Below are positions 447 to 47,285 of a DNA stretch of 47,285 bases, in pieces. The notes beneath the pieces are model-generated. The model was not told where the DNA came from. It searched no databases and saw only the letters and a program-made list of their open reading frames with translations. The stretch is from Escherichia phage phiKP26: the sequence record KC579452, one strand, 5' to 3'. The position numbers and the translations under genes were made by a program. Position 1 is the stretch's first letter; each line of letters begins with the position of its first letter.

Positions 447-457
447 AATGGTGAATA

Positions 458-500
458 TAGCACAAATTGCTAAACAATAAATTGGGTAGTCAGCTATGAT
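458..500 (+). promoter_or_regulatory. palindrome/-10 promoter-like element (tagcacaaattgcta-N22-tatgat)
   Basis: Family member; upstream of CDS 531-761. Confidence 0.4.
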
Positions 501-530
501 TACCCTATCAACAACAAAGAGGAAATAACC

Positions 531-761
531 ATGAAAGCTGTAATTATTGAAGGTTTCGCAGGCGCTCGCACAGAGGTGTCAACCTCAGTACATTACGAAG
601 GCATCGTGAGTATTGATATCAACTTCGGTAACCATGGCGACGGATGTGCGCTTGCTCACTATACTGCCTACCAAGCGCGCAAACTGGCGGCGGCGCTTAT
701 TCAGGCGGCTGAGGGGATTGAGAATGGTAAGGGTTACACTGGTCGGCGTAGAAGCGAGTAA
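531..761 (+). CDS. hypothetical early protein
   Basis: 76-aa ORF with RBS (aaagagg) and upstream palindrome/TATGAT element. Confidence 0.45.
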   Translation: MKAVIIEGFAGARTEVSTSVHYEGIVSIDINFGNHGDGCALAHYTAYQARKLAAALIQAAEGIENGKGYTGRRRSE

Positions 762-1324: not shown

Positions 1325-1576
1325 ATGAGCAAGTACAACCGACAGATTGTTGGGCTGAATGGTAAAGTAACAACCATTGATGTATATCGGGTTCTGGATG
1401 CATTCCAGGTAACTGACCCCGCAACTCAACACGCCATTAAGAAAATGCTTTGTAGTGGGTTGCGTGGGCACAAGGACTATTTAACAGACCTTGATGAAGC
1501 TATTGAGTCGCTTAATAAGGCTTATGAACTTCGAAAGCAGCGTGATGAGCTTGGATATGTTTATTTCAGTAAATAG
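1325..1576 (+). CDS. hypothetical early protein
   Basis: 83-aa ORF; stop TAA abuts the palindrome element at 1574. Confidence 0.45.
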   Translation: MSKYNRQIVGLNGKVTTIDVYRVLDAFQVTDPATQHAIKKMLCSGLRGHKDYLTDLDEAIESLNKAYELRKQRDELGYVYFSK

Positions 1577-1616
1577 CACAAATTGCTAAACATCCATCGC
1601 AAGGATGCGTTACCAT
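1574..1616 (+). promoter_or_regulatory. palindrome/-10 promoter-like element (weak -10 taccat)
   Basis: tagcacaaattgcta plus 22 nt; leader ...atcgaaattagacgaggaaag before a 42-aa ORF at 1650. Confidence 0.3.
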
Positions 1617-1773
1617 TACTTTATCGAAATTAGACGAGGAAAGATTAAATGTGTGGATATGATGAGTTGCCAAGTGAATGGTGTAAAAAANTGATGGATG
1701 AGGCTAAAGATGGGGATGAAGTAATGGCGTACTTTGAGTTGATGAACATGTGGCGCGAACGTGAGGAGAAGAA

Positions 1774-2920: not shown

Positions 2921-2996
2921 GTTCTGCTGGCGTAACAGGATAACGCAGAGACCTCCTAAGTCTCAGTTACTGGTTCGAGTCCAGTGCGGAACACCA
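2921..2996 (+). tRNA. tRNA-Arg (anticodon CCT, reads AGG)
   Basis: Hand-folded cloverleaf: 7-bp acceptor stem (gttctgc/gcggaac, one G-U), D stem gcgt/acgc with GG in loop, anticodon stem gagac/gtctc, loop ctCCTaa with U33 and A37, T stem actgg/ccagt, T loop ttcgagt, discriminator A, encoded CCA. Confidence 0.8.
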
Positions 2997-11582: not shown

Positions 11583-11603
11583 TAGCACTTTTTGACAATG
11601 ACA

Positions 11604-11629
11604 AGCACCCTTCGGGGTGCTATTTTTTN
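11604..11629 (+). terminator. rho-independent terminator
   Basis: agcaccc-ttcg-gggtgct hairpin followed by a T6 run, directly after the capsid stop. Confidence 0.75.
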
Positions 11630-11652
11630 GTCTAAAGAAANGTGGAGGGGTT

Positions 11653-18866: not shown

Positions 18867-18867
18867 A

Positions 18868-18910
18868 TAGCACTAATTGCTAAACAGAAATACCAAGGAA
18901 GGTTTACAAT
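18868..18910 (+). promoter_or_regulatory. palindrome/-10 promoter-like element (tagcactaattgcta-N22-tacaat) inside the tail module
   Basis: Family member directly upstream of the moron-like ORF 18930-19154. Confidence 0.4.
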
Positions 18911-18929
18911 TAAAAANCTTAANCAAGAG

Positions 18930-19154
18930 GTGATTGATATGAAAATTAATTTGCTTTGCACAAATGCTGAAGTTGGTGTCTTTGATTTAAATGTTGGTCA
19001 AACTTATGTGGCATACTTCAATGATGATTATGGTCATTATGAACTTTCTGATGAAGGTTTTTCTTATGAGTTAAGCGAGGTTAGAGGTGCTCCTTTGACT
19101 TTCTACTGTAAATCTTTTAGTGGTGGATTGGTGACATTCATTAAAGTAANCTAA
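18930..19154 (+). CDS. hypothetical protein (moron-like insert in the tail-tip module)
   Basis: 74-aa ORF with its own palindrome/TACAAT element upstream, an RBS (aagaggtg) and a hairpin plus T-run downstream. Confidence 0.5.
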   Translation: MIDMKINLLCTNAEVGVFDLNVGQTYVAYFNDDYGHYELSDEGFSYELSEVRGAPLTFYCKSFSGGLVTFIKVX

Positions 19155-21286: not shown

Positions 21287-21335
21287 TTAGTGTAGAATGG
21301 CACAAATGGTTAAACAAACAACGAGGTTATATGAT

Positions 21336-25724: not shown

Positions 25725-25960
25725 TCCTTTGAGCCGTGATCTGCAACTGAGCCGCCGTAGCCTCCACCAACCTTTGACTCAATGCCAGCATAACGAATAT
25801 CAACCTCTCCAGCTGCAACAATAACACCACCTTTCCACTTAGCTACGCAAACATCACCCGCCTGAGTCGCACACCATCCGTCAGGGCGCGGACCAGAAGA
25901 ACAACCTACCGTCATGATTGCTGCTGCTGCGATGATTGCTGATTTGATGAAGTTAGTCAT
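25715..25960 (-). CDS. small lipoprotein, Cor/Llp-like superinfection-exclusion candidate
   Basis: 81 aa from the ATG at 25960 with RBS (aaggaa): [22 protein letters not shown]..., i.e. signal peptide plus lipobox-like Cys; Gly-rich mature part. Confidence 0.55.
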
Positions 25961-26010
25961 TTTGTATTCCTTAGTCAGTATGTTTCGTTTCGATGGAGTA
26001 ACTATAGCAA

Positions 26011-26054
26011 AGGCTTCTGCTGTAGTCTTTAGCAAATCGTGCTATTTTATATAC
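26011..26054 (-). promoter_or_regulatory. palindrome/-10 promoter-like element driving the lipoprotein operon
   Basis: Minus-strand reading: tagcacgatttgcta-N23-tatagt-tactccatcgaaacgaaa, then RBS and ATG at 25960. Confidence 0.45.
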
Positions 26055-26520
26055 GCGTAACCGATGTAACTCGATGTATACAATCTCATCCGCTGAAAAT
26101 TGTATACGCTTTTTACGCGAAGATACGCATTAGTTACATTTATAAATCCTTATATAATAAGGGTTTAGAGTATTATTATTATTATATATATTACTATGTA
26201 TATCTTGTAACTACTCTCTATAGCTATGTTGTTGTGTTTTACTAAAATACTATGTTTGATTTCCTGTTAAGGAGAAAATGCATATATATATAGATAGGGT
26301 GCAAATTTGGTGGATACATTGGTTACAAGGGTTACATTCAGCATTCATGCGGCGTACAGAGCATCAAAGCGTATTTATGTGAGTTTTACAGCTATATACA
26401 AAATAGCACGAATAATCAAAAAAAATGATTCCCGATTAATCACAGGGGAGTAAACAACTNAAGCGGTAATACTTGTGATGNATAAATTGGAACACAATTT
26501 ACAGGAATGAAAACANATCC
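26040..26520. promoter_or_regulatory. AT-rich non-coding switch region A (phased ACGC boxes, (TAT)5 tract, divergent promoters); candidate origin
   Basis: ~480 bp without credible ORFs between divergent operons; ACGC boxes at 26105/26116/26125; tattattattattat at 26171-26185; GGTTACA x2 near 26320; palindrome element at its left edge. Confidence 0.5.
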
Positions 26521-27180: not shown

Positions 27181-27253
27181 TAGGCAAAACCAATTGGATA
27201 AAATTAGCCACGGATGGCATAGTTAAACCACACAAACAAAGAGAGATATAGAA

Positions 27254-27451: not shown

Positions 27452-28420
27452 ATGAGCTTCAAGGTTTACACTAGCGACGAGTTAACCAACGAAGCCTACC
27501 ACAAGGAGTCAGACCATGTGTCTGGCTCTGGTCTGGCTCACATCTTCTCAACTTGCCCCGCTGCTTATAAGTTTGCAGAGCATGATGATAGCAATAAGGC
27601 TTTAAAGTTCGGTACATTAGCCCACACGGTTATTCTTGAAAACTCTGTATTCGATGCGACTTACTATCGCCAGCCAGCGCAAGAAGAGTTTGATGATCTG
27701 ATTACTAGCAAGACTGCTTTGGCAACTCGGTTGAAGTCGATGGGTATTGCTGGAACATCTGGTAAGGATTATCCAGAATTAATGGAGATTCTGGCGCTGA
27801 GCGGTGAATCACTTAACGTATGGTGGGATATTCAGCGCTCTAACGAGGTTAAAGCGAACGGTCGCGAGATTGTATCAGCTAAAGACTTTGACACAGTACA
27901 TGCGATGCGAGAGGTGCTGTGTGGCATTCCTGCATACAATGCGATAGTGAACAGTAAAACCGCTCAGCGAGAGTTATCAATCTTCGGTGAGATTAACGAG
28001 TGCGGCGTTAAGGTTCGTCTTGACCATGTCGATGTCGTTGATGATGTAGTTTATATCCGTGACTACAAGACGACTAGCGACGCATCTCCATCTGGATTTG
28101 GGAGATTGGCCTTCAAGCATGGTTACTTGCTAAAAATGGCGCTTCAGCATGATTTGTTTGTTCGCGCCTTTAATGAGAAGCGTCGAGTTGTTGTTCAGCT
28201 TCTTTGCCAGGAAANGAAAAGCCCATTCCTTCCAATGTGCTACACGATAACAAAAGAGCACTTAAAGGTTGGTAGATTGCAATACATGAGCGCCCTATCC
28301 ACATACAAGCAATGCAAGAAACTTGATATTTGGCCTGGTTACGGATTTGGCGAAACAGAGATGGAACTGCAAGTTCCTGAGTATGAGATGAAGAAGTACG
28401 AAGATAGCACGAATAGCTAA
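27452..28420 (+). CDS. PD-(D/E)xK family exonuclease (recombination exonuclease)
   Basis: 322 aa; D...VVDDVVYIRDYKTT motif characteristic of PD-(D/E)xK nucleases; immediately upstream of Erf. Confidence 0.6.
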   Translation: MSFKVYTSDELTNEAYHKESDHVSGSGLAHIFSTCPAAYKFAEHDDSNKALKFGTLAHTVILENSVFDATYYRQPAQEEFDDLITSKTALATRLKSMGIAGTSGKDYPELMEILALSGESLNVWWDIQRSNEVKANGREIVSAKDFDTVHAMREVLCGIPAYNAIVNSKTAQRELSIFGEINECGVKVRLDHVDVVDDVVYIRDYKTTSDASPSGFGRLAFKHGYLLKMALQHDLFVRAFNEKRRVVVQLLCQEXKSPFLPMCYTITKEHLKVGRLQYMSALSTYKQCKKLDIWPGYGFGETEMELQVPEYEMKKYEDSTNS

Positions 28421-28447
28421 AACGGTATTAAATTGATGGGGTATAGT
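28405..28447 (+). promoter_or_regulatory. palindrome/-10 promoter-like element (imperfect palindrome) upstream of erf
   Basis: tagcacgaatagcta-N22-tatagt-tacctcatcgacaacaaagagag; overlaps the exonuclease stop codon. Confidence 0.4.
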
Positions 28448-28476
28448 TACCTCATCGACAACAAAGAGAGATAGAA

Positions 28477-29103
28477 ATGAAGACTTCAGAGAGTAACAAA
28501 ACAGTTTTACAGGCACTATTTAAAGCTCGCACAGGATTTGCGAAGGCGGCAAGAGACAAGCAGAACAGTCACCTAAAGAATAGATACGCAACACTTGATT
28601 CCATGCTGGAGGCTGTAATCCCAGCACTTGATGATAACGACTTAATGATTATGCAGAGCATGTTAGAAACATCAACTACTGACAATCTTAACGTAGAGAC
28701 GACTCTCTATCACGTTTCTGGCGAGTGGGTTAGCTTCTTCATGATTATGCCAATAGTTAAGAAAGACCCGCAAGGAGTAGGATCTGCATTTACATACGCT
28801 CGGCGTTACTCACTAGCGGCGGCTTTGGGAATTAGTCAGTCTGACGATGATGCGCAGATGGCAGTTAAGAGCGTCAAGGACTGGAAGCGCGATATTGAGA
28901 AGGCAGAAACTCGAGAAGAGCTTATCGAAATCTACAAATCATGCAAATCACAAGCTGACACGGCAACGTGGGGTATAGTAGAGAAAGCGATAATAGATAA
29001 ACAAGCAGAGATCAAAATGGCTTCCGCAAGTGGCTTCAACCCAGCTAAGCCAAAGGAAGTCGCTAAAAAAGTTGCAAACGCAACGAATGAAGTAGTAAAA
29101 TAA
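28477..29103 (+). CDS. Erf-family single-strand annealing protein
   Basis: 208 aa; GSAFTYARRYSLAAALG matches the conserved ERF core. Confidence 0.7.
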   Translation: MKTSESNKTVLQALFKARTGFAKAARDKQNSHLKNRYATLDSMLEAVIPALDDNDLMIMQSMLETSTTDNLNVETTLYHVSGEWVSFFMIMPIVKKDPQGVGSAFTYARRYSLAAALGISQSDDDAQMAVKSVKDWKRDIEKAETREELIEIYKSCKSQADTATWGIVEKAIIDKQAEIKMASASGFNPAKPKEVAKKVANATNEVVK

Positions 29104-32426: not shown

Positions 32427-33350
32427 CTATGAATGCTTATCTATCAGATCTTGCGGGTTATATAACCTTCTTTCAAGCCCCATCTTGAAATTGCCACCTT
32501 TAGGTATTACGACTTTTAGACCTCTATCATCAGCAACATAAAGCGACTCCTTTTCATCAGCTAAGCAAGCTATCCTGCACTCTTTATTCCTGAGTTCATA
32601 AGCAACCATTTCTAAGTTGTGGTGAGTTAGGCAGTCGTAAGTTGNCCTTTTTGTGCATGCCGATACATGTAGTGCGTTAATCCAGCCAACAGTGAGGTAG
32701 ATAGCGCCATCACTACATTTACTTACCGGAACAACCGAGCCGCGAGTGTAGTCTTTTGCGAGATATGACTCATTACCCTCTTCATCTATAAACTTTACGT
32801 TACAAGGCTCATCTGATAAACCATCCTCGTAAACCATAAAGCATTGCTCGGCTATAATTTCTTCTCCAGACCCCTTTATTCCTATTTTGTATTCCCGTTC
32901 AGTAATAATTGCTTCAAATCTCGTAAGCTGTGTCATTTCTACAGACTTGGTGCGAGAGATTACCTTCTCGATTGATTCAATGGATGCCTGAGCGCCAAAG
33001 TTATATCTCTGAACTCGGCTCGCTGCTTTGTTTGCCTTCACTATGATTTCGACGGGAGTCAAATTAAGCCAGTCGCCAAGTAAATTTATAGCTTCCACAA
33101 ATCTAAGGCCGGAACATTTCATAACCCAGCCTATTCCTGAGTCACTGCCGCACTTAGAGCAAACTGCGGCCCCATTACCTTTTTCGCTTCCTATTTCGTC
33201 TGTAAACCTGAATCTGTCAGTACCAAAGCAATAAGGGCACGGCCCGTGCTTCTTGCTAAGGTGTCTATCATTCCAACCAAGCTCCTTTGCATAAAATGAT
33301 TTCCACAATCCAGCCATTTTAGGTATTACTTCATTCTTGTCGTAATTCAT
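32427..33350 (-). CDS. DNA primase (zinc-ribbon plus TOPRIM-like)
   Basis: 307 aa; CPYC-x19-CSKC zinc-ribbon near the N-terminus; acidic TOPRIM-like segment; adjacent to the helicase region. Confidence 0.55.
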   Translation of the reverse strand: MNYDKNEVIPKMAGLWKSFYAKELGWNDRHLSKKHGPCPYCFGTDRFRFTDEIGSEKGNGAAVCSKCGSDSGIGWVMKCSGLRFVEAINLLGDWLNLTPVEIIVKANKAASRVQRYNFGAQASIESIEKVISRTKSVEMTQLTRFEAIITEREYKIGIKGSGEEIIAEQCFMVYEDGLSDEPCNVKFIDEEGNESYLAKDYTRGSVVPVSKCSDGAIYLTVGWINALHVSACTKRXTYDCLTHHNLEMVAYELRNKECRIACLADEKESLYVADDRGLKVVIPKGGNFKMGLERRLYNPQDLIDKHS

Positions 33351-33402: not shown

Positions 33403-33876
33403 TTACTCTTTAGCTTTTCGTGCTTCTTCTCTTTCTTTCTTAACCTTTCGCCATGATTTACGCTGCGGCTTGGTTGCTAACTCAGCTTCTGTAACAACTC
33501 GAAGCATCTGACGCTTCTTGCATCGCAGTGTTAGAGGCTTGCCGTTACCGTCGAACTGTAAATCAGGTCGGCAGAATGTAGCCCTGAACCCCTCGCCAGT
33601 TCGCTTATATCGATTATGCGCAAGCTGTGCGCCGCGAGCTGAAATCATTCCCCGCTTACACCATTCTTCTACAGCCTGGCGCGTAACCTTTAGCTGCTTA
33701 GCTAGATTGGCCTTGCTGCCGTAGAAGTCCAATACAATCTCAAGGCGCGCCCTTAATCCCGCTCTCACTTCATCCTTTAGTACATAGTAACCTGATGGAC
33801 GCTTACGCGGCTTCTTGTCTTCTGTGCGAATTGTTCCGTTGTTACCATTAAGAGTACGCTTGTCAATTGAATCCAT
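33403..33876 (-). CDS. Cro/YdaS-like HTH DNA-binding protein with basic N- and C-terminal tails
   Basis: 157 aa; LAKQLKVTRQAVEEWCKRGMI...CRPDL matches the YdaS/Cro-type HTH pattern; divergent from the helicase across an intergenic region holding the palindrome element. Confidence 0.55.
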   Translation of the reverse strand: MDSIDKRTLNGNNGTIRTEDKKPRKRPSGYYVLKDEVRAGLRARLEIVLDFYGSKANLAKQLKVTRQAVEEWCKRGMISARGAQLAHNRYKRTGEGFRATFCRPDLQFDGNGKPLTLRCKKRQMLRVVTEAELATKPQRKSWRKVKKEREEARKAKE

Positions 33877-33889
33877 TTTCTCACCTCAA

Positions 33890-33932
33890 TAGCACTTTTT
33901 GTTAAACATTGGTTTATATGGCTGTTATTATA
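33890..33932 (+). promoter_or_regulatory. palindrome element in the divergent HTH/helicase intergenic region
   Basis: tagcactttttgtta followed by an AT-rich -10-like tract and leader ...caatcgaacgaaca before the helicase ATG at 33969; the HTH gene starts 14 nt to the left on the other strand. Confidence 0.4.
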
Positions 33933-33968
33933 TCGTCAATCGAACGAACATTAAAGGCATTTGATATT

Positions 33969-35912
33969 ATGGAAAACCGATTGAAAACAATACAAAAACA
34001 GATTGAAGAATTGGGCGAAGATAAGATTAAAGAGATTCAAACTAAATTCACCTCTTCTAACTGTATGGTTCCGTATAGCTATCAGTGTGTTATGTACAAT
34101 GAGATTGCAAAGCGCATTAGTCGCTATGAGCATCCATTTATCGCAATGGCTTCAGTTTCTGCTGGTAAGACTCTGGTTTTTGGTATGGTTGCTAAGCGTT
34201 GCTCTGAGCTTGGCTTGCCTATGCTTGTTCTTGCTCGTCAGGCAGAGCTGGTTAGCCAGAATGCTTCTGAGATTTCTGATTACGGGGTTCCTAACTCCAT
34301 TTATTGCTCTGGGCTTGGAATAAANTCATCTTATTTCCCTGTGGTGGTTGGCTCTGAGGGCACAGTAGTTGGCGGGCTTAAGAAGTCACTTGGCGATTTC
34401 TGTCCTGCGGTAGTTGCTATTGATGAGTGTCACCATATTGATGACCAGGACATAGCGGAGGCAATTGATAACAATGAGACTGCGCAACAGGCATCAGATA
34501 AGGGGCGTAGCCAGTATACGGTCATCATCCTGACTTTAATGGAGCGCTGCCGTGCTAAGTATGGCAAGAATCTTCGTATCTTTGGACTGACTGGTTCTCC
34601 TTTCCGTGGAACTACGCCAATAGTTGTTGAAANCAAAANGGAGTTGGGATTTTGGCGTGAGACGGTCACAAATATCGATACAAACTACCTGGTAGAGTTC
34701 GGTTCCGTGGTTCCGACAAACTTTGGTGCTACTGATGGCGTTGGTTACGACCTGTCAGAGTTTGATGCATCATCTGAAGATGGTGTTCAGGATTACACTA
34801 AAGCCCAGCTTGAAGCCATGGATAAAAAGATTCAGGCATCTGGAACAATGACAGCGGAGATAATGAAGAAAGTATGGCTTGCCGCGAAAGACAGGAATGG
34901 AGTTCTGGTAACATGCGCAGGTGAGCGCCATTGCCACGAAGCCGCAAGTTACCTTCCTGAAGGTGAAAAGTTCTGCATTATAACTGGAAAGACTGGCGAG
35001 AAGCAGCGCAAGGAGTTGCTTGATAAGTGCTTTAGCGGGGAGATTAAATATTGCTTTCAGGTTCAGGCGCTAACCACTGGCGTAAATGTGCCTACATGGG
35101 ATACAAGCGTTATTCTGCGTAAGATCGGTAGCCTTACGCTCCTGGTTCAGCTACTTGGTCGAGGAATGCGTAAGCTTAAGAAGCTCCATGAAGATAAAGG
35201 AATGGTAAAGAATGACCATTTGGTACTGGACTTCGCAGGAACGATGGACTCTATGGCATCATTGTACTTCAATCCAATTCTTGAGCAGGCTCAATATCAG
35301 CTACGAAAGAGTAATGGCAAGGAGACTAAGCAGTGTCCAGTATGCGGAACAGAGAACAGCTTCTTTGCTCGACGTTGCATGCATATTGATGAGAATAATA
35401 ATCGCTGCGAATATTTCTGGGTTAGTCGCACATGTGAAGACCAGAAAGACCCACGAACCGGAAAGGTTATCGTTAAAGGCTGTGGAGTTCAGAATGACGT
35501 TGCAGCTAAGATTTGTAGGGGTTGCGATTGCACTTTGCTTGATCCAAATCTCAACTTAAGCGGCAAACATTACCGCAAGAACGACTGGTTTGATGTTGTT
35601 GACTTTAAGGTTGGGCTAACAAAGAACCAATCAGGAATCATCTACAACTACATCCTTGATGATGGCATGGGTGGGACATTCAAAGCTCATGAGGTTTTCT
35701 TTGTAGAGTCTGGCCATCGAGTATGTAAAACGCTCTGGTTGAACAATGGAATTAAAGGTCACGTAGTCGACATGAACGCTAAGCGATATATGGCTGCATA
35801 TCGCAATGCTCGCAAGATTATGGAGTATGCGCAGTACATCCATGCCCCTAAGAGGGTAACTCACCGCAAGACCGCTAAAGGTGGCGATAATATTGCTAAT
35901 AAGGAGTTCTAA
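33969..35912 (+). CDS. SF2 DEAD/DEAH-box helicase with C-terminal zinc ribbon
   Basis: Walker A SAGKTLV, DECHH box, C-terminal CPVCG...CxxC cluster; the track start at 33909 is probably leader, ATG at 33969 follows the RBS. Confidence 0.75.
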   Translation: MENRLKTIQKQIEELGEDKIKEIQTKFTSSNCMVPYSYQCVMYNEIAKRISRYEHPFIAMASVSAGKTLVFGMVAKRCSELGLPMLVLARQAELVSQNASEISDYGVPNSIYCSGLGIXSSYFPVVVGSEGTVVGGLKKSLGDFCPAVVAIDECHHIDDQDIAEAIDNNETAQQASDKGRSQYTVIILTLMERCRAKYGKNLRIFGLTGSPFRGTTPIVVEXKXELGFWRETVTNIDTNYLVEFGSVVPTNFGATDGVGYDLSEFDASSEDGVQDYTKAQLEAMDKKIQASGTMTAEIMKKVWLAAKDRNGVLVTCAGERHCHEAASYLPEGEKFCIITGKTGEKQRKELLDKCFSGEIKYCFQVQALTTGVNVPTWDTSVILRKIGSLTLLVQLLGRGMRKLKKLHEDKGMVKNDHLVLDFAGTMDSMASLYFNPILEQAQYQLRKSNGKETKQCPVCGTENSFFARRCMHIDENNNRCEYFWVSRTCEDQKDPRTGKVIVKGCGVQNDVAAKICRGCDCTLLDPNLNLSGKHYRKNDWFDVVDFKVGLTKNQSGIIYNYILDDGMGGTFKAHEVFFVESGHRVCKTLWLNNGIKGHVVDMNAKRYMAAYRNARKIMEYAQYIHAPKRVTHRKTAKGGDNIANKEF

Positions 35913-36301
35913 TGGTTAAGGTTTTTCACGACAAAACAAGCACGGACAAGGCTAAAGAGGTTGTTCACCAAATAAATTCAATAGCTTGGGTTCGCCACAA
36001 CCATCCAGAGATATTTGCTTTTCACGTGAAGAATGAAGGTCTCAAGTCTATCGGCACAGCAATGAAGGACAAGCAGGAGGGAGTAATTAAGGGTGTATCA
36101 GATATTCTACTGATTGGACCAAATGGCTTTGCCGCAATAGAGCTTAAGCGAGCAATAAAATCAGATAGCAAGGTTTCAAAGGAGCAAAAGGAGTTCCTGG
36201 AAAAGGTATCAGAAACAGGAGGTTACGCAGCAATCTGTTATGGGTTTGAAATGTTTAAGTTGGCAATTACAGATTATCTATCAAATAGCACGAATTGCTA
36301 A
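35912..36301 (+). CDS. VRR-NUC domain nuclease
   Basis: 129 aa; ...SDILLIGPNGFAAIELKR... resembles the PD-(D/E)xK VRR-NUC core; stop codon lies inside the palindrome element. Confidence 0.55.
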   Translation: MVKVFHDKTSTDKAKEVVHQINSIAWVRHNHPEIFAFHVKNEGLKSIGTAMKDKQEGVIKGVSDILLIGPNGFAAIELKRAIKSDSKVSKEQKEFLEKVSETGGYAAICYGFEMFKLAITDYLSNSTNC

Positions 36302-36328
36302 AGAGATTTCGCAAGGATGCGATATAGT
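36286..36328 (+). promoter_or_regulatory. palindrome/-10 promoter-like element (best consensus copy)
   Basis: tagcacgaattgcta-N22-tatagt-tacttcatcgaaacgaagagag, then ATG at 36360. Confidence 0.45.
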
Positions 36329-36359
36329 TACTTCATCGAAACGAAGAGAGAGAAACAAA

Positions 36360-36554
36360 ATGACTACTATCTACACTGAAAAGCTGTACAAGTCACGCAA
36401 AACTGGTTATGAATATGAATTAGCAATCACCCCTGAGGGTTATATTCTTGATGATGGAGACGGTTACTCATTCGAAGTTAGCCCAACATACAAAGATGAT
36501 TTAGAGACTGTTAAAAACGCATTCGGCGAAAAATTTGATGAGGTGTCAGAATAA
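36360..36554 (+). CDS. hypothetical protein
   Basis: 64 aa from the ATG at 36360, directly after a full copy of the promoter/leader element. Confidence 0.45.
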   Translation: MTTIYTEKLYKSRKTGYEYELAITPEGYILDDGDGYSFEVSPTYKDDLETVKNAFGEKFDEVSE

Positions 36555-36969: not shown

Positions 36970-36970
36970 A

Positions 36971-37013
36971 TAGCACTTTTNGTTAAAACTAAANTACAAG
37001 GATGGATTATATT
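36971..37013 (+). promoter_or_regulatory. palindrome/-10 promoter-like element
   Basis: tagcacttttNgtta-N22-tatatt; upstream of the small ORF at 37043. Confidence 0.4.
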
Positions 37014-37165
37014 AATTACATCAGCAAATGAGAGGGTTAAGAGATGAAAATTATAGACAAAGAGATGTTCGAGATTGCGCAGTCTTTCGCAAATGACGCA
37101 GTTAAGACTGGATCTGAATATTGCTGGATTTGCGCTCGAGAAGCTTTAAAAATGGCTTACGGCCT

Positions 37166-37405: not shown

Positions 37406-37659
37406 ATTTACCTGGTCTGGATTTTGATGAGAGTAAGTATCAGGTTGTGTTTTTTGGTGAGAAGCCTTATCGGAAGATTCCTTTCTCTGAGTGGATTCCT
37501 CCGGACTACCTCGATGTACTGGTGCAAATTGAGATTGGTAAGGCTGAGTTGATGTACTACTCACCTGGCTGCAATATGATGATGCCTAGTGAGTATTCTC
37601 CAGCAATTGCTGCGCTTGAAACTGAGTTTCTTGATTACTGGCTAAAAGANGTTAAATAG
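37402..37659 (+). CDS. hypothetical protein
   Basis: 85-aa ORF; ATGA overlap upstream; stop at a palindrome element. Confidence 0.4.
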   Translation: MNLPGLDFDESKYQVVFFGEKPYRKIPFSEWIPPDYLDVLVQIEIGKAELMYYSPGCNMMMPSEYSPAIAALETEFLDYWLKXVK

Positions 37660-37699
37660 CACTTTTNGTTAAAACACATCGCCATGGATGGCGTATAGT
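37657..37699 (+). promoter_or_regulatory. palindrome/-10 promoter-like element
   Basis: tagcacttttNgtta-N22-tatagt-gtgttcatcgaaacgagag; upstream of a 22-aa hydrophobic ORF and the phosphoesterase gene. Confidence 0.4.
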
Positions 37700-37810
37700 G
37701 TGTTCATCGAAACGAGAGACGATTCAGATGAAAACATTACTACCGTTGATGGCTATGCCATTAACCTTTATAATCATGTACTTCATAATCTGCTAACAGG
37801 AAATTAAATA

Positions 37811-38947
37811 ATGTCTATAGCTAAAATCACCAACGAAGAGTTAAAGCAAGAACTGGCTAACGGTATGACTAACAAGGCAATCGCAGAGAAGTACGGTATG
37901 AATATTCGTAACGTAGAGCTGCGTCGCAGCAAGTTGGCTAAGGCTGGGGATGGTCACGGTCGCGATGTGAGTAACCTAATTCCTCAGGGCTACATGGTTA
38001 AAGGTGTATCTAGCCTTGTTGATAATGATGGCAATGTGAAGTTGCAATGGGTTAAGTCCTCTATTGATGCAGAGAAGCTTGAGGAGATGATGAATCAAGC
38101 GCGAGAGGCATTCTCTAGCGAGCTACCAAANGAAAAAGCAGTTAAATCTGAAGGTCTGAATTTTGATGAAGATACTTTAGCTATGTATCCAGTATTTGAC
38201 CTTCACATTGGCGCAATGGCCCACAAGCATGAGTGCGGAGAAAACTACGACACAGCAACGGCAGAGAAAGTAATGAACGATTATTTTGACTACGCCGTAC
38301 AGAAATCTCCAAATTCAAAGAATGCTGTACTAGTGCTAGGAGGTGATCTGCTTCATTATGATTCTTTGGAAGCCAAAACTCCAGCCAGTGGTCACATCCT
38401 GGACAGTGACAGTCGCTACGCCAAGATTGTTTATGTTTGCATTCGAGCGGTTCGCCGCGCAATTCGAAACATGCTTAGCAAACATGAAAACGTAGAGGTT
38501 AAAGTTATATCTGGTAATCATGATGAAAGTGGTATGGTTTGGTTGCGGGCTGCGCTTGCTGCATTTTATGAGGAAGAGCCACGCGTTAGTATTGATGTTA
38601 GTCCCGCGGCAATGATGGTAACTAAGTTTGGTTCTACAATGCTTGGTTTCACTCACGGGCATCAAATGCGTAAAGCTGATACTCGCCTTTCGGTTATGGC
38701 TACTGACTGGCGACGTGACTTTGGTTTAAGTGATTATGTATACACCCACTCAGGCCACTGGCATTCACAGAAGATTACAGAGACAAATCTTGGTATTGAT
38801 GAGGTTCATGGTCAGCTTGGTTCACCAGATGCATATAGTGCGAATGGCGGGTGGCGCTCACAAAGGCAGGCTGCGGTAATCATATATCATAAAGAGTTTG
38901 GTGAGGTTGGTCGTTTTATCTGTCGCCCAGAAATGTTTAATAANTAG
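37811..38947 (+). CDS. calcineurin-like metallophosphoesterase with N-terminal HTH-like domain
   Basis: 378 aa; metallophosphatase motifs in order (DLHIG, GGDLLHYD, GNHDE, GHQ, HSGHWH); N-terminal ~50 aa HTH-like. Confidence 0.65.
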   Translation: MSIAKITNEELKQELANGMTNKAIAEKYGMNIRNVELRRSKLAKAGDGHGRDVSNLIPQGYMVKGVSSLVDNDGNVKLQWVKSSIDAEKLEEMMNQAREAFSSELPXEKAVKSEGLNFDEDTLAMYPVFDLHIGAMAHKHECGENYDTATAEKVMNDYFDYAVQKSPNSKNAVLVLGGDLLHYDSLEAKTPASGHILDSDSRYAKIVYVCIRAVRRAIRNMLSKHENVEVKVISGNHDESGMVWLRAALAAFYEEEPRVSIDVSPAAMMVTKFGSTMLGFTHGHQMRKADTRLSVMATDWRRDFGLSDYVYTHSGHWHSQKITETNLGIDEVHGQLGSPDAYSANGGWRSQRQAAVIIYHKEFGEVGRFICRPEMFNX

Positions 38948-39022: not shown

Positions 39023-39214
39023 ATGACTTGCGGAAATATTGAGATGAATTGGTTCAAGAAAGAAATCAAATGGAAAGAAATGTTAAGCATAAAGAGGAAG
39101 GTGGGGATGGGGATAACAGGAGTTATTNATTATAGTGAGTGTTTCAACGACGCGGTATTGGCAAGGANGAAAGCTGAATCTGAATACTCATTTCATGAAA
39201 ATCACGGAAANTAG
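39023..39214 (+). CDS. hypothetical protein
   Basis: 63-aa ORF; Ns within. Confidence 0.3.
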   Translation: MTCGNIEMNWFKKEIKWKEMLSIKRKVGMGITGVIXYSECFNDAVLARXKAESEYSFHENHGX

Positions 39215-39254
39215 CACGAATTGCTAAAACACAAATCAAAAGATGGGGTATATT
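39212..39254 (+). promoter_or_regulatory. palindrome/-10 promoter-like element
   Basis: tagcacgaattgcta-N22-tatatt-tactccatcaaa...; upstream of CDS 39288-39473. Confidence 0.4.
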
Positions 39255-39287
39255 TACTCCATCAAANCAAANCGAGAGGATACAAAG

Positions 39288-39473
39288 ATGGCTAAGTTCA
39301 CACAATCAGATGCACAGATTGAAGTTAAAGATGTNGGTTTTGGTAAGACATTTCGGATTGCACAGGCTTACGGAACTAGCGAAGAAGATGTAAAGGTTGA
39401 CACTATTAACCTTACTGCTAAGAATGCACGTGAGATCGCTTATGCAATCCTTGCGGCACTTGGAGAGCGTTAA
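39288..39473 (+). CDS. hypothetical protein
   Basis: 61 aa from the ATG at 39288 after a full promoter/leader element with RBS (gagagga). Confidence 0.45.
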   Translation: MAKFTQSDAQIEVKDXGFGKTFRIAQAYGTSEEDVKVDTINLTAKNAREIAYAILAALGER

Positions 39474-42989: not shown

Positions 42990-43241
42990 CTCTCTCTAAA
43001 TGCCCCCGAAGGGGCTTGATTATTTACTTGATACGAACTTCAATCATCTGACCTTTATGAGGAAGATACAGCTTTGCGCGACCTCTAATCATTACGGTGA
43101 TGATATTCTCCTTAAGGTCAACGTGAAGTACTTTGCGGAACAGTGGCCCCATTTTTACCATCATGCCAGGTTTGATGTTTTCGATAGTAGTCATGATATC
43201 CATTTTTTAGCCCTTTTAATGTATTTCGTTTCGATGAAGAG

Positions 43242-43285
43242 AATATATCAATTTTTGTTGTTAAGGTCTTTAGCAAAAAGTGCCA
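43242..43285 (-). promoter_or_regulatory. palindrome/-10 promoter-like element (minus strand)
   Basis: Minus reading: tggcactttttgcta-N23-tatatt-ctcttcatcgaaacgaaa, then a 59-aa ORF starting near 43200. Confidence 0.4.
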
Positions 43286-43439
43286 TTAAAGACCAACCAG
43301 ACATTTGCCAACTACAACAGCGATTGCGCCCATGAAGCCAAAGAANCCAAACTTAATTACTTGTTCCATTACCGCATCAACTGCTTTAGAGATGTTTTTC
43401 ATTTTGTTCACCTTAGTGTTTGTCTTCTTGATGGAAACA

Positions 43440-43483
43440 AATATACCCGCCGAAGCGGGTAGTGTCATTAGCAAAAAGTGCTA
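43440..43483 (-). promoter_or_regulatory. palindrome/-10 promoter-like element with embedded GC hairpin (minus strand)
   Basis: Minus reading: tagcactttttgcta, spacer containing cccgc-ttcg-gcggg, then tatatt; small membrane ORF downstream. Confidence 0.4.
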
Positions 43484-43678
43484 TTAATTAAAACCTTTCG
43501 CCAGATGATAGCTTATTACTAGGCATTTTATCTATGAAAGTTTCAAGCAACCATTTTCTAGTAATGAAATCAACCACGCAAAAATAGCCTCTATCTTTGC
43601 AGTATCTGTACTTAGTGCCGTGTTGTATAGACTTGCAATAAATTGAATCTTTTGTTATGTAAATTCTTACTGTCTCAT

Positions 43679-44057: not shown

Positions 44058-44360
44058 TTAGTTAGCGTTATGACGTTCGATATAGTCGCGGATTGTTTCG
44101 CCTACGCTTTTAGCGGCACCAAAAGTGCCCTTTGCGTGGCGTGAATCGCGGTACGTCTGGAAGAATTTACGAGCGATGTTTGCGAACATTGAACCAGTCA
44201 CGCGAGCATCACCGAAATTTGTTTCGATAGCGTTGCTAATGCCATCCTTGAACTCATTTTCAGTCATGAACATCTCTGCCATGCCAGCAGTCTCGAAAAG
44301 GTTAGCTAATTCATTCATGTTGTTATGGTCTTCGGCTGTAAACAGGTTCATGTTAATCAT
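44058..44360 (-). CDS. hypothetical protein
   Basis: 100-aa ORF preceded on the minus strand by a full promoter/leader element. Confidence 0.45.
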   Translation of the reverse strand: MINMNLFTAEDHNNMNELANLFETAGMAEMFMTENEFKDGISNAIETNFGDARVTGSMFANIARKFFQTYRDSRHAKGTFGAAKSVGETIRDYIERHNAN

Positions 44361-44394
44361 CTTCGTGATTCTTTAGTTTCGTTTCGATGAGATG

Positions 44395-44437
44395 AATATA
44401 CAATAAAAGCCCCGAAGGGCTTTAGCAATTCGTGCTA
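44395..44437 (-). promoter_or_regulatory. palindrome/-10 promoter-like element with embedded terminator hairpin (minus strand)
   Basis: Minus reading: tagcacgaattgcta, spacer aaagccc-ttcg-gggcttt, then tatatt-catctcatcgaaacgaaa; upstream of CDS 44058-44360. Confidence 0.45.
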
Positions 44438-44587
44438 TTNCTTTGCTGCTTTTGCAATTGCCTTCTGGACGATGTTGAAGCTCTCAATCAAATCTTCTTT
44501 GAAGTAGTCACCAACAGGCCAACCCTTACCGCTGTACTTGGCTATGGTTTCTAGATCGTAATAGTTCAAGTCAGATGGCTTTAGCAT

Positions 44588-45006: not shown

Positions 45007-45201
45007 TCAATCTTCATAACGCTCTACCTCGAAGTTGTATACCATTACGTTTCTATCATGCTTGTTCTTTATCACCATTGACTCAAGCTCTTCGTATACA
45101 GCCACTACATTGTAAACACCACCAGGCTCAAGGCCGTAGAATTCGTACTCTTCATCGTCAAAACCATCCGTTTTACTTAGTGCTGTTATTTTNACCTTCA
45201 T
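45007..45201 (-). CDS. hypothetical protein
   Basis: 64 aa; first gene after a full promoter/leader element with RBS (gaggag). Confidence 0.45.
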   Translation of the reverse strand: MKXKITALSKTDGFDDEEYEFYGLEPGGVYNVVAVYEELESMVIKNKHDRNVMVYNFEVERYED

Positions 45202-45228
45202 ATCTATCTCCTCGTTGTTGATGAGTTT

Positions 45229-45272
45229 ACTATAGCCTTGCCATCCCCATTTGTCTTTAGCAAAAAGTGCTA
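45229..45272 (-). promoter_or_regulatory. palindrome/-10 promoter-like element (minus strand), first promoter of the leftward operon from region B
   Basis: Minus reading: tagcactttttgcta-N23-tatagt-aaactcatcaacaacgaggag, then ATG at 45201. Confidence 0.45.
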
Positions 45273-45289
45273 TTCGTCAGATTTATGGA

Positions 45290-45870
45290 TTGTTGCAGGC
45301 ATTGCGATGATTAGCATGACTATTACACATAAAGCAATATTTCATCGATTGCAATGATTTTCTGGACTGTTGCGAATTTATCAATGATTGATGGATTGAT
45401 GGAATGAAGTGAGGGTTGTATCAACTAGTTGGTTGGTTTTAGCTTTCACAAGGAGCTTTCCTTTATGTACGCGTTATGGCTTGTTCAACCGTGTAGAGAA
45501 ATTGCCATATTTACGCCATCCACGCCAGTTTACGCGCTGGTTACAAANTAAATCCCTTATATAACAACCATTTAGATTTATTATTATTATTATTATTATA
45601 TATGTTATTCCGTAACCATGATTATCTGAGATATTGGTGATATTTTTTGATATTGCGCGGCGCATAAAGATTTAGATAAAGAGATAGGGATGCAAGCGGG
45701 GTGGCGAAAATGGCTTAACATACCATAACGGCAATAACAGCCTTGATACGACTAGCGTCAGCATGTAACAATTTAGCATAACGTGCGATTACCGAGTTGA
45801 ACGTGTAAATAACGCTTGCGACATTCACCAATCATGGTAAGATGCTCTCACACCAAACGAGAGGAGTAGT
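45290..45870. promoter_or_regulatory. AT-rich non-coding switch region B, paralogous to 26040-26520 (phased ACGC boxes, (TTA)6 tract); candidate origin
   Basis: ACGC boxes at 45513/45522/45532; ttattattattattattat at 45578-45596 with flanks similar to 26141-26215; tandem gattgatgg x2 near 45390; no credible ORF. Confidence 0.5.
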
Positions 45871-45873
45871 AAA

Positions 45874-46389
45874 ATGAGTAATACAATTCGTGAAGCAAAC
45901 CCGACACTTGGCGACCTGGTGCGGCACCTTGTTAAGATGGCTCTTAATTCAGAGGATGGAAGCGTAACAGTTCCCGTTAAGTTGCTTTACAAGAATCTTT
46001 ACGGAGAAATTGATAACGACTATGTAGCAGCTGACTTTAGACCTGGCGGCAAATATTCACTTCCAAAGCTTAAGGCTTCCTATGTTTCAAATACAGCCAG
46101 CAGAATGCAGGAAGTTAAAGACGCAGATAAGCGCGCAAGGTTCTCTTGTGGAGAGATGGAGTATAATGGTGATGAGCATTATTGCGTAAAAATCACAATG
46201 GTCAACGGTGCTGTTAAGAATGGAACCCGAGCTAAGACAAACAGTCAATTAGAGGAGAAAGCGGTAAGCGAGTTTAAAGCTAGGCTACTTAAGCTTTCCC
46301 CNAGCGTAGCAGGAATGAGTGGAGATGAACTGAAGGGTGCGGTAGCTATGATTAACGCATATCAGGAAATGATTAAGGAGACTAAATAA
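45874..46389 (+). CDS. hypothetical protein
   Basis: 171-aa ORF with a strong RBS (gagaggag); first rightward gene after region B. Confidence 0.5.
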   Translation: MSNTIREANPTLGDLVRHLVKMALNSEDGSVTVPVKLLYKNLYGEIDNDYVAADFRPGGKYSLPKLKASYVSNTASRMQEVKDADKRARFSCGEMEYNGDEHYCVKITMVNGAVKNGTRAKTNSQLEEKAVSEFKARLLKLSXSVAGMSGDELKGAVAMINAYQEMIKETK

Positions 46390-46961: not shown

Positions 46962-47285
46962 AAAAAATAAGTNANNAACCCCCACCACCAAAAAAACCAN
47001 NAACACANNNANAAATAACAACAAATAACAACCAAAAACCCANNNAAAAACANCAACACAACANCACNAANAANNCNCCACANAANAAAGGACAAATAAC
47101 ANNAGGATGCGAAGANACGNAGNNNNGCNNNNAGTANNCTNCGCAANNNNNGACAGGCNNNGGTGGACCCTCGTCACCGTAACACTTACAGGTACGCACG
47201 GACGGTAACGGTCGGACGAGGCAGGGTACGTACGGTCGGTAGGGACGGCGGGTACCTAGGTAGGGGTACTTTCGGAACGGTAACG
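46923..47285. other. Low-quality / artefactual sequence tail (N-rich, A/C homopolymer-rich)
   Basis: Dense Ns, poly-A and poly-C runs, no coherent reading frame; the ORFs predicted here are full of X. Confidence 0.8.

Follow-up and report, generated by a model that had tools for sequence, protein, structure and literature searches.

The DNA analysed here is the 47,285-nt record KC579452 of Escherichia phage phiKP26, the whole of which is called the window below, and its subject is a composite intercistronic element that recurs on both strands of it. At the copy that was flagged first, the stop codon of a VRR-NUC gene falls within a 20-bp repeat (36285-36304), which is followed by a gap containing a hairpin, a -10 hexamer, a leader and the start codon of the next gene. 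Between positions 33000 and 45000 the window is 99.4% identical to Escherichia phage C119 with 100% query cover (megablast), and the large terminase is concordant; C119 infects E. coli O157 and belongs to the genus Rogunavirus in the T1-like family Drexlerviridae. The gene order is that of a T1-like siphovirus: both arms carry small early genes, the late structural genes occupy 3.3-24.7 kb, and those for recombination, replication and lysis 26-41 kb. We observed that the repeat matches the E. coli marbox, the site read by the monomeric activators MarA, SoxS and Rob, in sequence, in orientation and in distance from the -10 hexamer, which suggests that early and middle genes of this phage may be wired to a host stress activator.

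A preliminary description of the window had listed 14 strong copies of the element, and extraction of the listed positions confirmed that all of them are present and that each is co-oriented with its downstream gene. The positions themselves were right apart from that of one minus-strand copy, given as read from 26054, whose true place is 26030-26044. Several details needed correction. The palindrome had been written as TAGCAC-N5-TGCTA, which has no literal match in the window, and the true 15-bp inverted repeat is TAGCA-N5-TGCTA; the spacer of 22-23 bp between palindrome and hexamer holds for most copies (22 bp) and for four minus-strand copies (23 bp), but it is 21 bp at 33890; and of the supposedly conserved 12-nt leader TCATCGAAACGA there are four exact copies and a fifth with one mismatch, the remaining elements having only related leaders rich in A and C. 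The four copies listed as degenerate fall short of their description, each lacking one half of the composite: at 26404 and 38944 the repeat is present with no -10 at promoter distance, at 27205 the -10 and the leader are present and the repeat is absent, and 11583 is a decayed half-repeat (Table 1). The family as such is far from random expectation, with 14 matches to TAGCANNNNNTGCTA at no more than one mismatch against 2.2 expected (maximum of 6 in 100 shuffles) and with TAnnnT at a fixed distance in 13 of the 14 copies, a combination that did not occur in shuffled genomes. The elements are concentrated in the early and replication arms, as had been described.

The repeat itself is known, although the preliminary description had not recognised it as a described system. 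In phage TLS, as re-annotated by German, Kropinski et al. (2024, PMC11447400), the direct repeat aaATAGCACnnnTTGnTAAAA of 21 nt was reported at 21 places, 18 of them intergenic, co-oriented with transcription and ~76 nt before start codons, and was divided into three sub-groups by its central bases (AAA, TTT and GAA), with similar repeats in T1, Rtp and Rogue1 cited as unpublished observations. Only three sigma-70 promoters were found in TLS, "unexpectedly", and stoperators, enhancer-binding sites or UP elements were offered as roles for the repeat (PMC11447400). In the Rogue1 and AHP24-group papers the promoter search was limited to TTGACA-N15-17-TATAAT or to a neural-network predictor. The window repeat has the same sequence, intergenic placement, orientation and three sub-groups as that of TLS, and its start codons, ~30 nt past the hexamer, reproduce the published distance (20 + 18 + 6 + ~31 nt = ~75 nt). 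Since the window is a Rogunavirus, its copies are part of what those authors cited as unpublished. The TLS paper, however, treats an isolated 21-mer and links it neither to the marbox nor to a hairpin nor to a -10 hexamer lying 18 bp further downstream; the marbox match, the -10 geometry, the asymmetry of the site and the hairpin are added here.

Two published definitions of the marbox were compared with the window, gcannwwntgnnaaa (PMC12052159) and GCAHWWWWTGYYAAA (PMC6900184). The former has 12 exact matches against 1.12 expected, two more copies being masked only by N characters, and the latter, at no more than one mismatch, has 16 against 1.57 expected, with the TTT and AAA sub-groups fitting it 15/15. 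The phage consensus ATAGCAC-N4-TTG(C/T)TAAA(A/C)n also fits 13 of the 14 specified positions of AYnGCACnnWnnRYYAAAYn, which is said to be the consensus of Martin et al. from 1999, including Y14, at which the phage copies have either C or T, and we take its 3' half, TTTTGCTAAA, to be identical to the marRAB marbox in the crystal structure of MarA with DNA. The marbox has been described as a non-palindromic site bound by a monomer, which at class II promoters is oriented forward and overlaps the -35 position (PMC12052159, PMC6900184); RamA at micF is centred near -41. As no open text gave the class II distance in base pairs, we measured it on the MG1655 genome as the gap between 20-mer and -10 hexamer, and obtained 18 bp for micF (-10 TAGAAT, annotated RNA 5' end 8 nt past the hexamer) and 19 bp for both fumC and inaA; the sites of sodA and nfo could not be placed confidently and were not used.

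For the phage side of this comparison we pooled 51 elements from the window, T1, Klebsiella phage TAH8, Citrobacter phage HCF1 and Vc1, chosen by their similarity to the marbox, a choice that biases the columns specified by the marbox and leaves the comparison of symmetric partners unbiased. The gap between site and hexamer is 18 bp in 41 of them, 17 bp in six and 19 bp in four, so that with the hexamer at -12 to -7 the site spans -50 to -31, and GCAC...AAA is directed towards the downstream gene in all 14 window copies and all 51 pooled ones. The class II promoters that depend on MarA, SoxS, Rob or RamA (micF, fumC, inaA and lpxC P2) and the phage elements have in common an asymmetric, forward-oriented site of ~20 bp with the marbox consensus, placed over the -35 position 18-19 bp from the -10 and accompanied by a weak or absent -35. 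At fumC the fumA terminator abuts the marbox, a packing comparable to that of hairpin and site in the phage. The two groups differ in that the phage sites match the consensus near-perfectly and hardly differ among themselves, in contrast to the degenerate marboxes of the chromosome, and in that 14-20 copies occur per 47-kb virulent genome, with a covarying hairpin in spacer and discriminator, unlike in chromosomal class II promoters.

Downstream of the site, the 51 elements have the signature of a sigma-70 core promoter. The commonest hexamers are TATAGT (15), TATTAT (10) and TATATT (5), A2 and T6 being present in all of them by the selection criterion. At 16-18 bp from the hexamer the best match to a -35 is 2-4 of 6 positions, the sequence there being AAAACn, and 19 elements have an extended -10 (TGn) in front of the hexamer. 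Downstream, conservation is highest at the seventh nucleotide past the hexamer, an A in 43 of 51 elements, with a C before it in 35, and this C-A, 6-7 nt past the hexamer, would be the expected transcription start. When the hexamer is set at -12 to -7 the centre of the palindrome falls at -42, as had been calculated, and a -10 hexamer of sigma-70 type without a -35 supports the earlier proposal of a genome-wide promoter family with an upstream site at the class II position. We consider it highly probable that these are activator-dependent class II sigma-70 promoters.

The proposal that one dimeric protein binds the palindrome was not supported. Across the 51 elements from five phages, only T2-A6 and T12-A16 are symmetric, i.e. 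5 bp per arm. A1 and A17 are both invariant and 0% complementary, as are C7 (94% conserved) and T11 (98%) with respect to each other; the invariant G4 is partnered by a C14 that is only 71% conserved, with T in 29%; and A18 is invariant and has no symmetric partner. Such asymmetric conservation and the strict orientation of the element speak against a palindrome occupied by a homodimer, and what is conserved equals the marbox that MarA, SoxS and Rob read as monomers.

The composite is not restricted to the window. Counting marboxes at no more than one mismatch, and as composites those with TAnnnT at 18 or 19 bp, we found 17 marboxes of which 12 are composites in the window, 21 and 13 in T1, 14 and 8 in TAH8, and 7 and 3 in HCF1, compared with ~1 marbox and at most 0.05 composites in shuffled genomes. 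The comparison phages were annotated records picked from a spread tblastn search; a search with the helicase locus gave only four near-identical phages. The composite is kept in Tunavirus, Webervirus, Hicfunavirus and Jhansiroadvirus, being found in the related phages T1, TAH8, HCF1 and Vc1, and since it is conserved in independently sequenced genomes of five genera, a sequencing adapter or an assembly artefact is ruled out as its source. It is absent from two relatives outside the Drexlerviridae, coliphage C1 (0 marboxes and 0 composites) and Vibrio phage 207E29.1 (1 marbox and 0 composites). A pattern scan of IMG/VR for the repeat was uninformative, giving six contigs with one match each. 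The element is thus a real, family-wide module and, with promoter activity predicted from its signature, the main promoter family of this phage. As a separate observation, Vc1 (2801) and HCF1 (41740) have an almost identical promoter module, including the hairpin GATGCCG/CGGCATC, despite Vibrio cholerae and Citrobacter, respectively, as their recorded hosts, and the assignment of Vc1 to a Vibrio host bears on the question of a host factor.

Embedded in the module is a hairpin. In 30 of 49 elements a stem of at least 5 bp brackets the -10 hexamer, its 5' arm lying in the gap and its 3' arm forming the discriminator and stopping just before the conserved C-A. The arm sequences vary from copy to copy (GGGGTA/TACCCC, AAGGCCA/TGGCCTT, GGGGAAT/ATTCCCC, ATGAGGTG/CACCTCAT and GATGCCG/CGGCATC, among others), and two arm pairs hold a T-G that can pair, as U.G, in the sense strand only. 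In some 14 others the stem is of GC pairs, is capped by a GAAA or TTCG tetraloop and extends up to the hexamer, whose T-rich sequence takes the place of the U tract. Native elements fold with a mean of -10.2 kcal/mol versus -6.5 kcal/mol for chimeras in which the gap of one element was joined to the downstream arm of another (Mann-Whitney p = 1.6e-8). A GC hairpin with a U tract is clear in a subset (44438, 43484 and 11583 in the window, 39976 and 41956 in T1), and most bracketing hairpins have no U tract. Because transcripts from the predicted +1 would exclude the hairpin, it should act in read-through RNA, where it is most likely a terminator, a pause site or a protector of the 3' end of the upstream cistron.

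On these observations the module would be organised as follows. The end of the upstream gene would be followed by the asymmetric 20-bp site at about -50 to -31, the 18-bp gap, the TAnnnT hexamer without a -35, a discriminator of 6 nt, the C-A as -1 and +1, an A/C-rich 5' untranslated region of ~24 nt with a Shine-Dalgarno sequence, and the start codon. Most likely, a monomeric host activator of the MarA/SoxS/Rob type would bind the site and recruit or retain RNA polymerase through sigma region 4 and alpha, replacing the missing -35 contact and switching on about 14 early, middle and replication transcription units, and the variable hairpin would have a second function in the read-through RNA of the upstream gene, as a terminator or a stabiliser of its 3' end.

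The nature of the activator is less certain than that of the promoters, and judged from sequence we would give host Rob, MarA or SoxS an even chance at the very best. MarA, SoxS and Rob are highly conserved across Enterobacteriaceae, which would fit an invariant repeat in phages of Escherichia, Klebsiella and Citrobacter, and Rob alone of the three is constitutively abundant. A number of points weigh against a host activator. Cells that are not under stress contain little MarA or SoxS, and Rob has little activity before induction; it would be surprising for a fast lytic phage to rely on them. The class II spacing rule of 18-19 bp is one that Martin et al. are said to have given, and the spacing was checked on three promoters only. 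A3 and T11, which are free in the marbox consensus, are 94-98% conserved in the 51 elements, so that another reader may exist besides or instead of proteins of the MarA type. Coliphage C1 (Deseoctovirus), with a homologous helicase and the same host, has neither the repeat nor the gene of the phage regulator discussed below. Vc1, recorded on Vibrio cholerae, has an identical repeat. The regulator gene co-occurs with the repeat and is divergent from the repeat-bearing helicase promoter (33877-33975). Finally, a literature search found no paper linking the marbox or mar/sox/rob to T1-like phages, and the link to the host, if confirmed, would be new.

Among the proteins of the window, two had been proposed as binders on account of a helix-turn-helix (HTH) domain. 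In the N-terminal region of the product of 37811-38947 no HTH match was found, the only Pfam match being a weak one to a phosphoesterase. The product of 33403-33876, annotated as a transcriptional regulator, does have a Cro-like fold in a fold search and weak Pfam matches to P22_Cro and YdaS; as the binder it is less convincing, since its recognition helix reads TRQAVEEW, SNQTVQGW, SIQVVQQW, VCRLTNAY and CVRLTNAY in five phages with identical repeats, a variability that weakens it as the reader of the repeat. Its homologues are confined to T1-like phages (113 clusters, 823 phage records), and in their alignment the invariant residues are a basic N-terminal arm and a C-terminal motif, outside the HTH. 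Both terminal motifs, the invariant IDKRxxNGNNGTxRxxDKKxRK at the N-terminus, modelled as disordered, and the conserved GFRAxFCRPDLxFDxNGK at the C-terminus, are far more conserved than the HTH and may contact an invariant partner such as RNA polymerase or the DNA backbone. The minus-strand promoter of the regulator gene, TTGACG...TATAAT, overlaps the -10 of the helicase promoter (TATTAT) face to face, which places the helicase repeat at about +12 to +31 of the regulator transcript and is an arrangement comparable to that of promoter P57 and repeat DR11 in TLS (PMC11447400). With the two promoters overlapping in this way, competition for RNA polymerase is expected and may form a switch. As an alternative binder, or as a factor for shut-off, the regulator is a candidate. 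No HTH_18/AraC match was obtained when 48 proteins of the window, among them those of the small unknown open reading frames (ORFs) in the two arms and of the main genes for recombination and replication, were scanned with Pfam, and tblastn with MarA, SoxS and the N-domain of Rob gave nothing better than E ~1.

As the main alternative, the same class II site might be read by an early protein of the phage itself, the Cro-like regulator or another immediate-early product such as the DUF7174 protein, which we consider less likely than not. Such an activator would be made from a canonical promoter, of which there are few, and the repeat promoters would then form a middle class, as with lambda cI at OR2 (centre -42) or T4 MotA, and a phage-made middle activator is indeed the usual strategy of phages. 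The restriction of the regulator to T1-like phages, its co-occurrence with the repeat, its absence from coliphage C1 and its divergent gene beside a repeat promoter, with a -35/-10 promoter of its own (P57 in TLS), all suit this explanation. So do the half-sites TAGCA and TGCTA, which are 10 bp apart and would suit an HTH dimer, the A3 and T15 that complete the palindrome and are conserved beyond what a marbox needs, and a fold search that also yields the complex of lambda cI (N-terminal domain) with sigma region 4. Upstream of the DUF7174 gene (45874) there is a promoter without a marbox (TTGCGA-16-TAAGAT), which is plausible as immediate-early and may be independent of an activator. These points have to be set against the asymmetry of the conserved site, the different recognition helices behind one identical repeat, the location of the regulator's invariant residues outside its HTH, and the improbability of a chance marbox match in sequence, orientation and spacing at once. 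The T4 MotA box (-30), the Mor and C sites of Mu and lambda cI at OR2 for PRM are like the phage elements in forming a genome-wide promoter class with a good -10, no -35 and one fixed upstream box; in those systems, however, the phage encodes the activator, which with the exception of MotA is a dimer on a symmetric site, whereas here no protein of matching fold was found in the phage and the box equals the site of a host activator. Quite improbable, in our view, is a repeat that serves as an operator or stoperator at which a phage protein such as the Cro-like regulator shuts off intrinsically active early promoters, even if such an operator could double as a marbox for the host activator. Stoperators were proposed by the TLS authors, a Cro-like fold is typical of shut-off repressors, the repeat downstream of the regulator's own promoter has the geometry of autorepression, and the extended -10 that 19 of the 51 elements have could to some extent stand in for a -35. 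Yet most elements have neither a -35 nor TGn, so that weak activity is expected of them unaided, a site ending at -31 is poorly placed for repression with respect to the core promoter, and the arguments from asymmetry and from the recognition helix hold here as well. The stoperators of mycobacteriophage L5 are likewise many short, asymmetric, intergenic copies oriented with transcription, but they are repressor sites of a temperate phage that lie downstream of promoters and block elongation, whereas here the phage is virulent and the site is upstream of the -10.

A very improbable explanation is that the module works at the level of RNA, with UAGCA-N5-UGCUA and the second hairpin as intercistronic structures that terminate, pause or direct the processing of polycistronic transcripts, and with TAnnnT as a loop or U tract rather than part of a promoter. 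The hairpin at or before the hexamer covaries and its U.G pairs exist in the sense strand only, several copies are bona fide terminator-like (44438, 43484 and 11583), and the elements are always co-oriented with transcription. The repeat, by contrast, has no compensatory changes, its invariant A1, C7, A17 and A18 lie outside any stem, the TAnnnT signature stays at a fixed 18 bp whatever the type of hairpin, the conserved C-A is where a transcription start would be expected, and an Rfam scan of the window gave no match at the repeat elements, its sole match being the transfer RNA (tRNA) at 2921-2993. The least probable of the explanations considered is that RNA polymerase reads the repeat directly, without an accessory protein, as a site for the C-terminal domain of alpha similar to an UP element, or as a displaced -35. 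UP elements were among the options of the TLS authors, the repeat, at -50 to -31, has A/T-rich stretches between its G/C blocks, and TTGCTA resembles TTGACA. TTGCTA is, however, 21-23 bp (mostly 22) from the -10, beyond the tolerance of sigma-70; UP elements are A/T tracts at -60 to -38 without invariant G or C, whereas here G4, C5 and A6 never vary and conservation at C7 and G13 is 94-98%; and a sigma-54 promoter was ruled out as well, as the site has (A/G)G-N8-GC instead of GG-N10-GC and is followed by a conserved -10 TAnnnT.

A class II promoter read through a marbox would account for ~14-20 transcription units per genome. If the activator is indeed the host's, infection by common coliphages and Klebsiella phages, which are used in therapy and occur as laboratory contaminants, would be coupled to the regulators of intrinsic antibiotic resistance, phage efficacy might shift with bile, salicylate or oxidative stress, and the promoters would be compact, strong and inducible parts. 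If a phage protein reads the site, it would be a new activator that mimics marbox specificity. As a tentative and rather unlikely extension, the Drexlerviridae may have replaced the -35 of nearly all their early and middle promoters with the host marbox, placing expression under Rob, MarA, SoxS or RamA and tuning it by bile salts, salicylate and oxidative stress, while the palindrome could be the operator for shut-off by the Cro-like regulator and ~15-20 high-affinity sites in each genome copy could titrate the host regulators from resistance genes.

Table 1. Composite promoters and associated features in the window; each -10 and each hairpin belongs to the element in whose row it stands
Feature	Position (strand)	Marbox	Gap	-10	Start codon	Further details
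Composite promoter	457..533 (+)	457-476 (ATAGCACAAATTGCTAAACA)	18 bp	TATGAT 495-500	ATG 531	leader; hairpin arm GGGTA in gap, arm TACCC after -10
Composite promoter	1573..1651 (+)	1573-1592	18 bp	TACCAT 1611-1616	ATG 1649	
Decayed half-repeat	11583..11640 (+)			none at promoter distance		AATAGCACTTTTTGACAATG; after major capsid gene; intrinsic terminator behind it, GCACCC-TTCG-GGGTGC-TATTTTTT
Composite promoter within tail module	18867..18932 (+)	18867-18886		TACAAT 18905-18910	18930	
Composite promoter, phage lipoprotein gene	25958..26045 (-)	26045-26026	19 bp	TATAGT 26006-26001	probable ATG 25960	
Composite promoter, Erf recombinase gene	28404..28479 (+)	28404-28423 (1 mismatch)		TATAGT 28442-28447	ATG 28477	hairpin arms GATGGGGTA / TACCTCATC bracketing -10
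Transcriptional regulator gene	33403..33876 (-)					157 aa, Cro-like single HTH, Drexlerviridae-specific
Composite promoter, helicase gene	33889..33971 (+)	33889-33908	17 bp	TATTAT 33926-33931	probable ATG 33969	
Composite promoter (copy first flagged)	36285..36362 (+)	36285-36304		TATAGT 36323-36328	ATG 36360	hairpin CGCA-AGGA-TGCG in gap; predicted +1 A 36335; leader ATCGAAACGAAGAGAGAG
Composite promoter	36970..37046 (+)	36970-36989		TATATT 37008-37013	ATG 37044	
Composite promoter	37656..37730 (+)	37656-37675		TATAGT 37694-37699	ATG 37728	hairpin CGCCAT-GG-ATGGCG in gap
Composite promoter	39211..39290 (+)	39211-39230		TATATT 39249-39254	probable ATG 39288	hairpin arms GATGGGGTA / TACTCCATC around -10
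Composite promoter	43201..43286 (-)	43286-43267 (ATGGCAC variant)	19 bp	TATATT 43247-43242	ATG 43203	
Composite promoter	43409..43484 (-)	43484-43465 (2 mismatches)		TATATT 43445-43440	ATG 43411	hairpin CCCGC-TTCG-GCGGG, ends at -10
Composite promoter	44358..44438 (-)	44438-44419		TATATT 44400-44395	ATG 44360	hairpin AAAGCCC-TTCG-GGGCTTTT in gap, terminator-like
Composite promoter	45199..45273 (-)	45273-45254	19 bp	TATAGT 45234-45229	ATG 45201	
Canonical-type promoter without marbox	45816..45876 (+)					TTGCGA, 16 nt, TAAGAT; family-type leader ACACCAAACGAGAGG

Two more perfect marbox matches, without a -10 at promoter distance, could be chance or decayed copies; one, at 21297-21316 (+), coincides with the start codon of a 1141-aa tail gene and the other, at 45770-45789 (-), lies in the divergent region between the early arms. 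The record has a dense patch of N characters at ~47.05-47.17 kb (47050-47170) and isolated ones elsewhere, some within repeats (36986, 37672 and 39211), which mask some exact motif matches and break ORFs, for example at 29.1-29.6 kb, where C119 has its HNH and SSB genes. A single tRNA-Arg gene (anticodon CCT) is located at 2921-2996 (+), with the left early genes on one side and the small terminase gene on the other, as is reported of related phages.

On a practical matter, the promoter geometry implies start codons later than those of the longest ORFs or of the C119 annotation, which fall within the promoter elements: 33969 for the helicase gene (ORF start 33909), 39288 and not 39243, 25960 and not 26035, and 36360 and not 36240. 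Directly after the 37656 promoter and before the exonuclease gene, there is furthermore an unannotated ORF of 22 codons at 37728-37796 (+) (MKTLLPLMAMPLTFIIMYFIIC), in a stretch whose counterpart in C119 is a gap with no annotated gene; its strongly hydrophobic product suggests a small membrane peptide.

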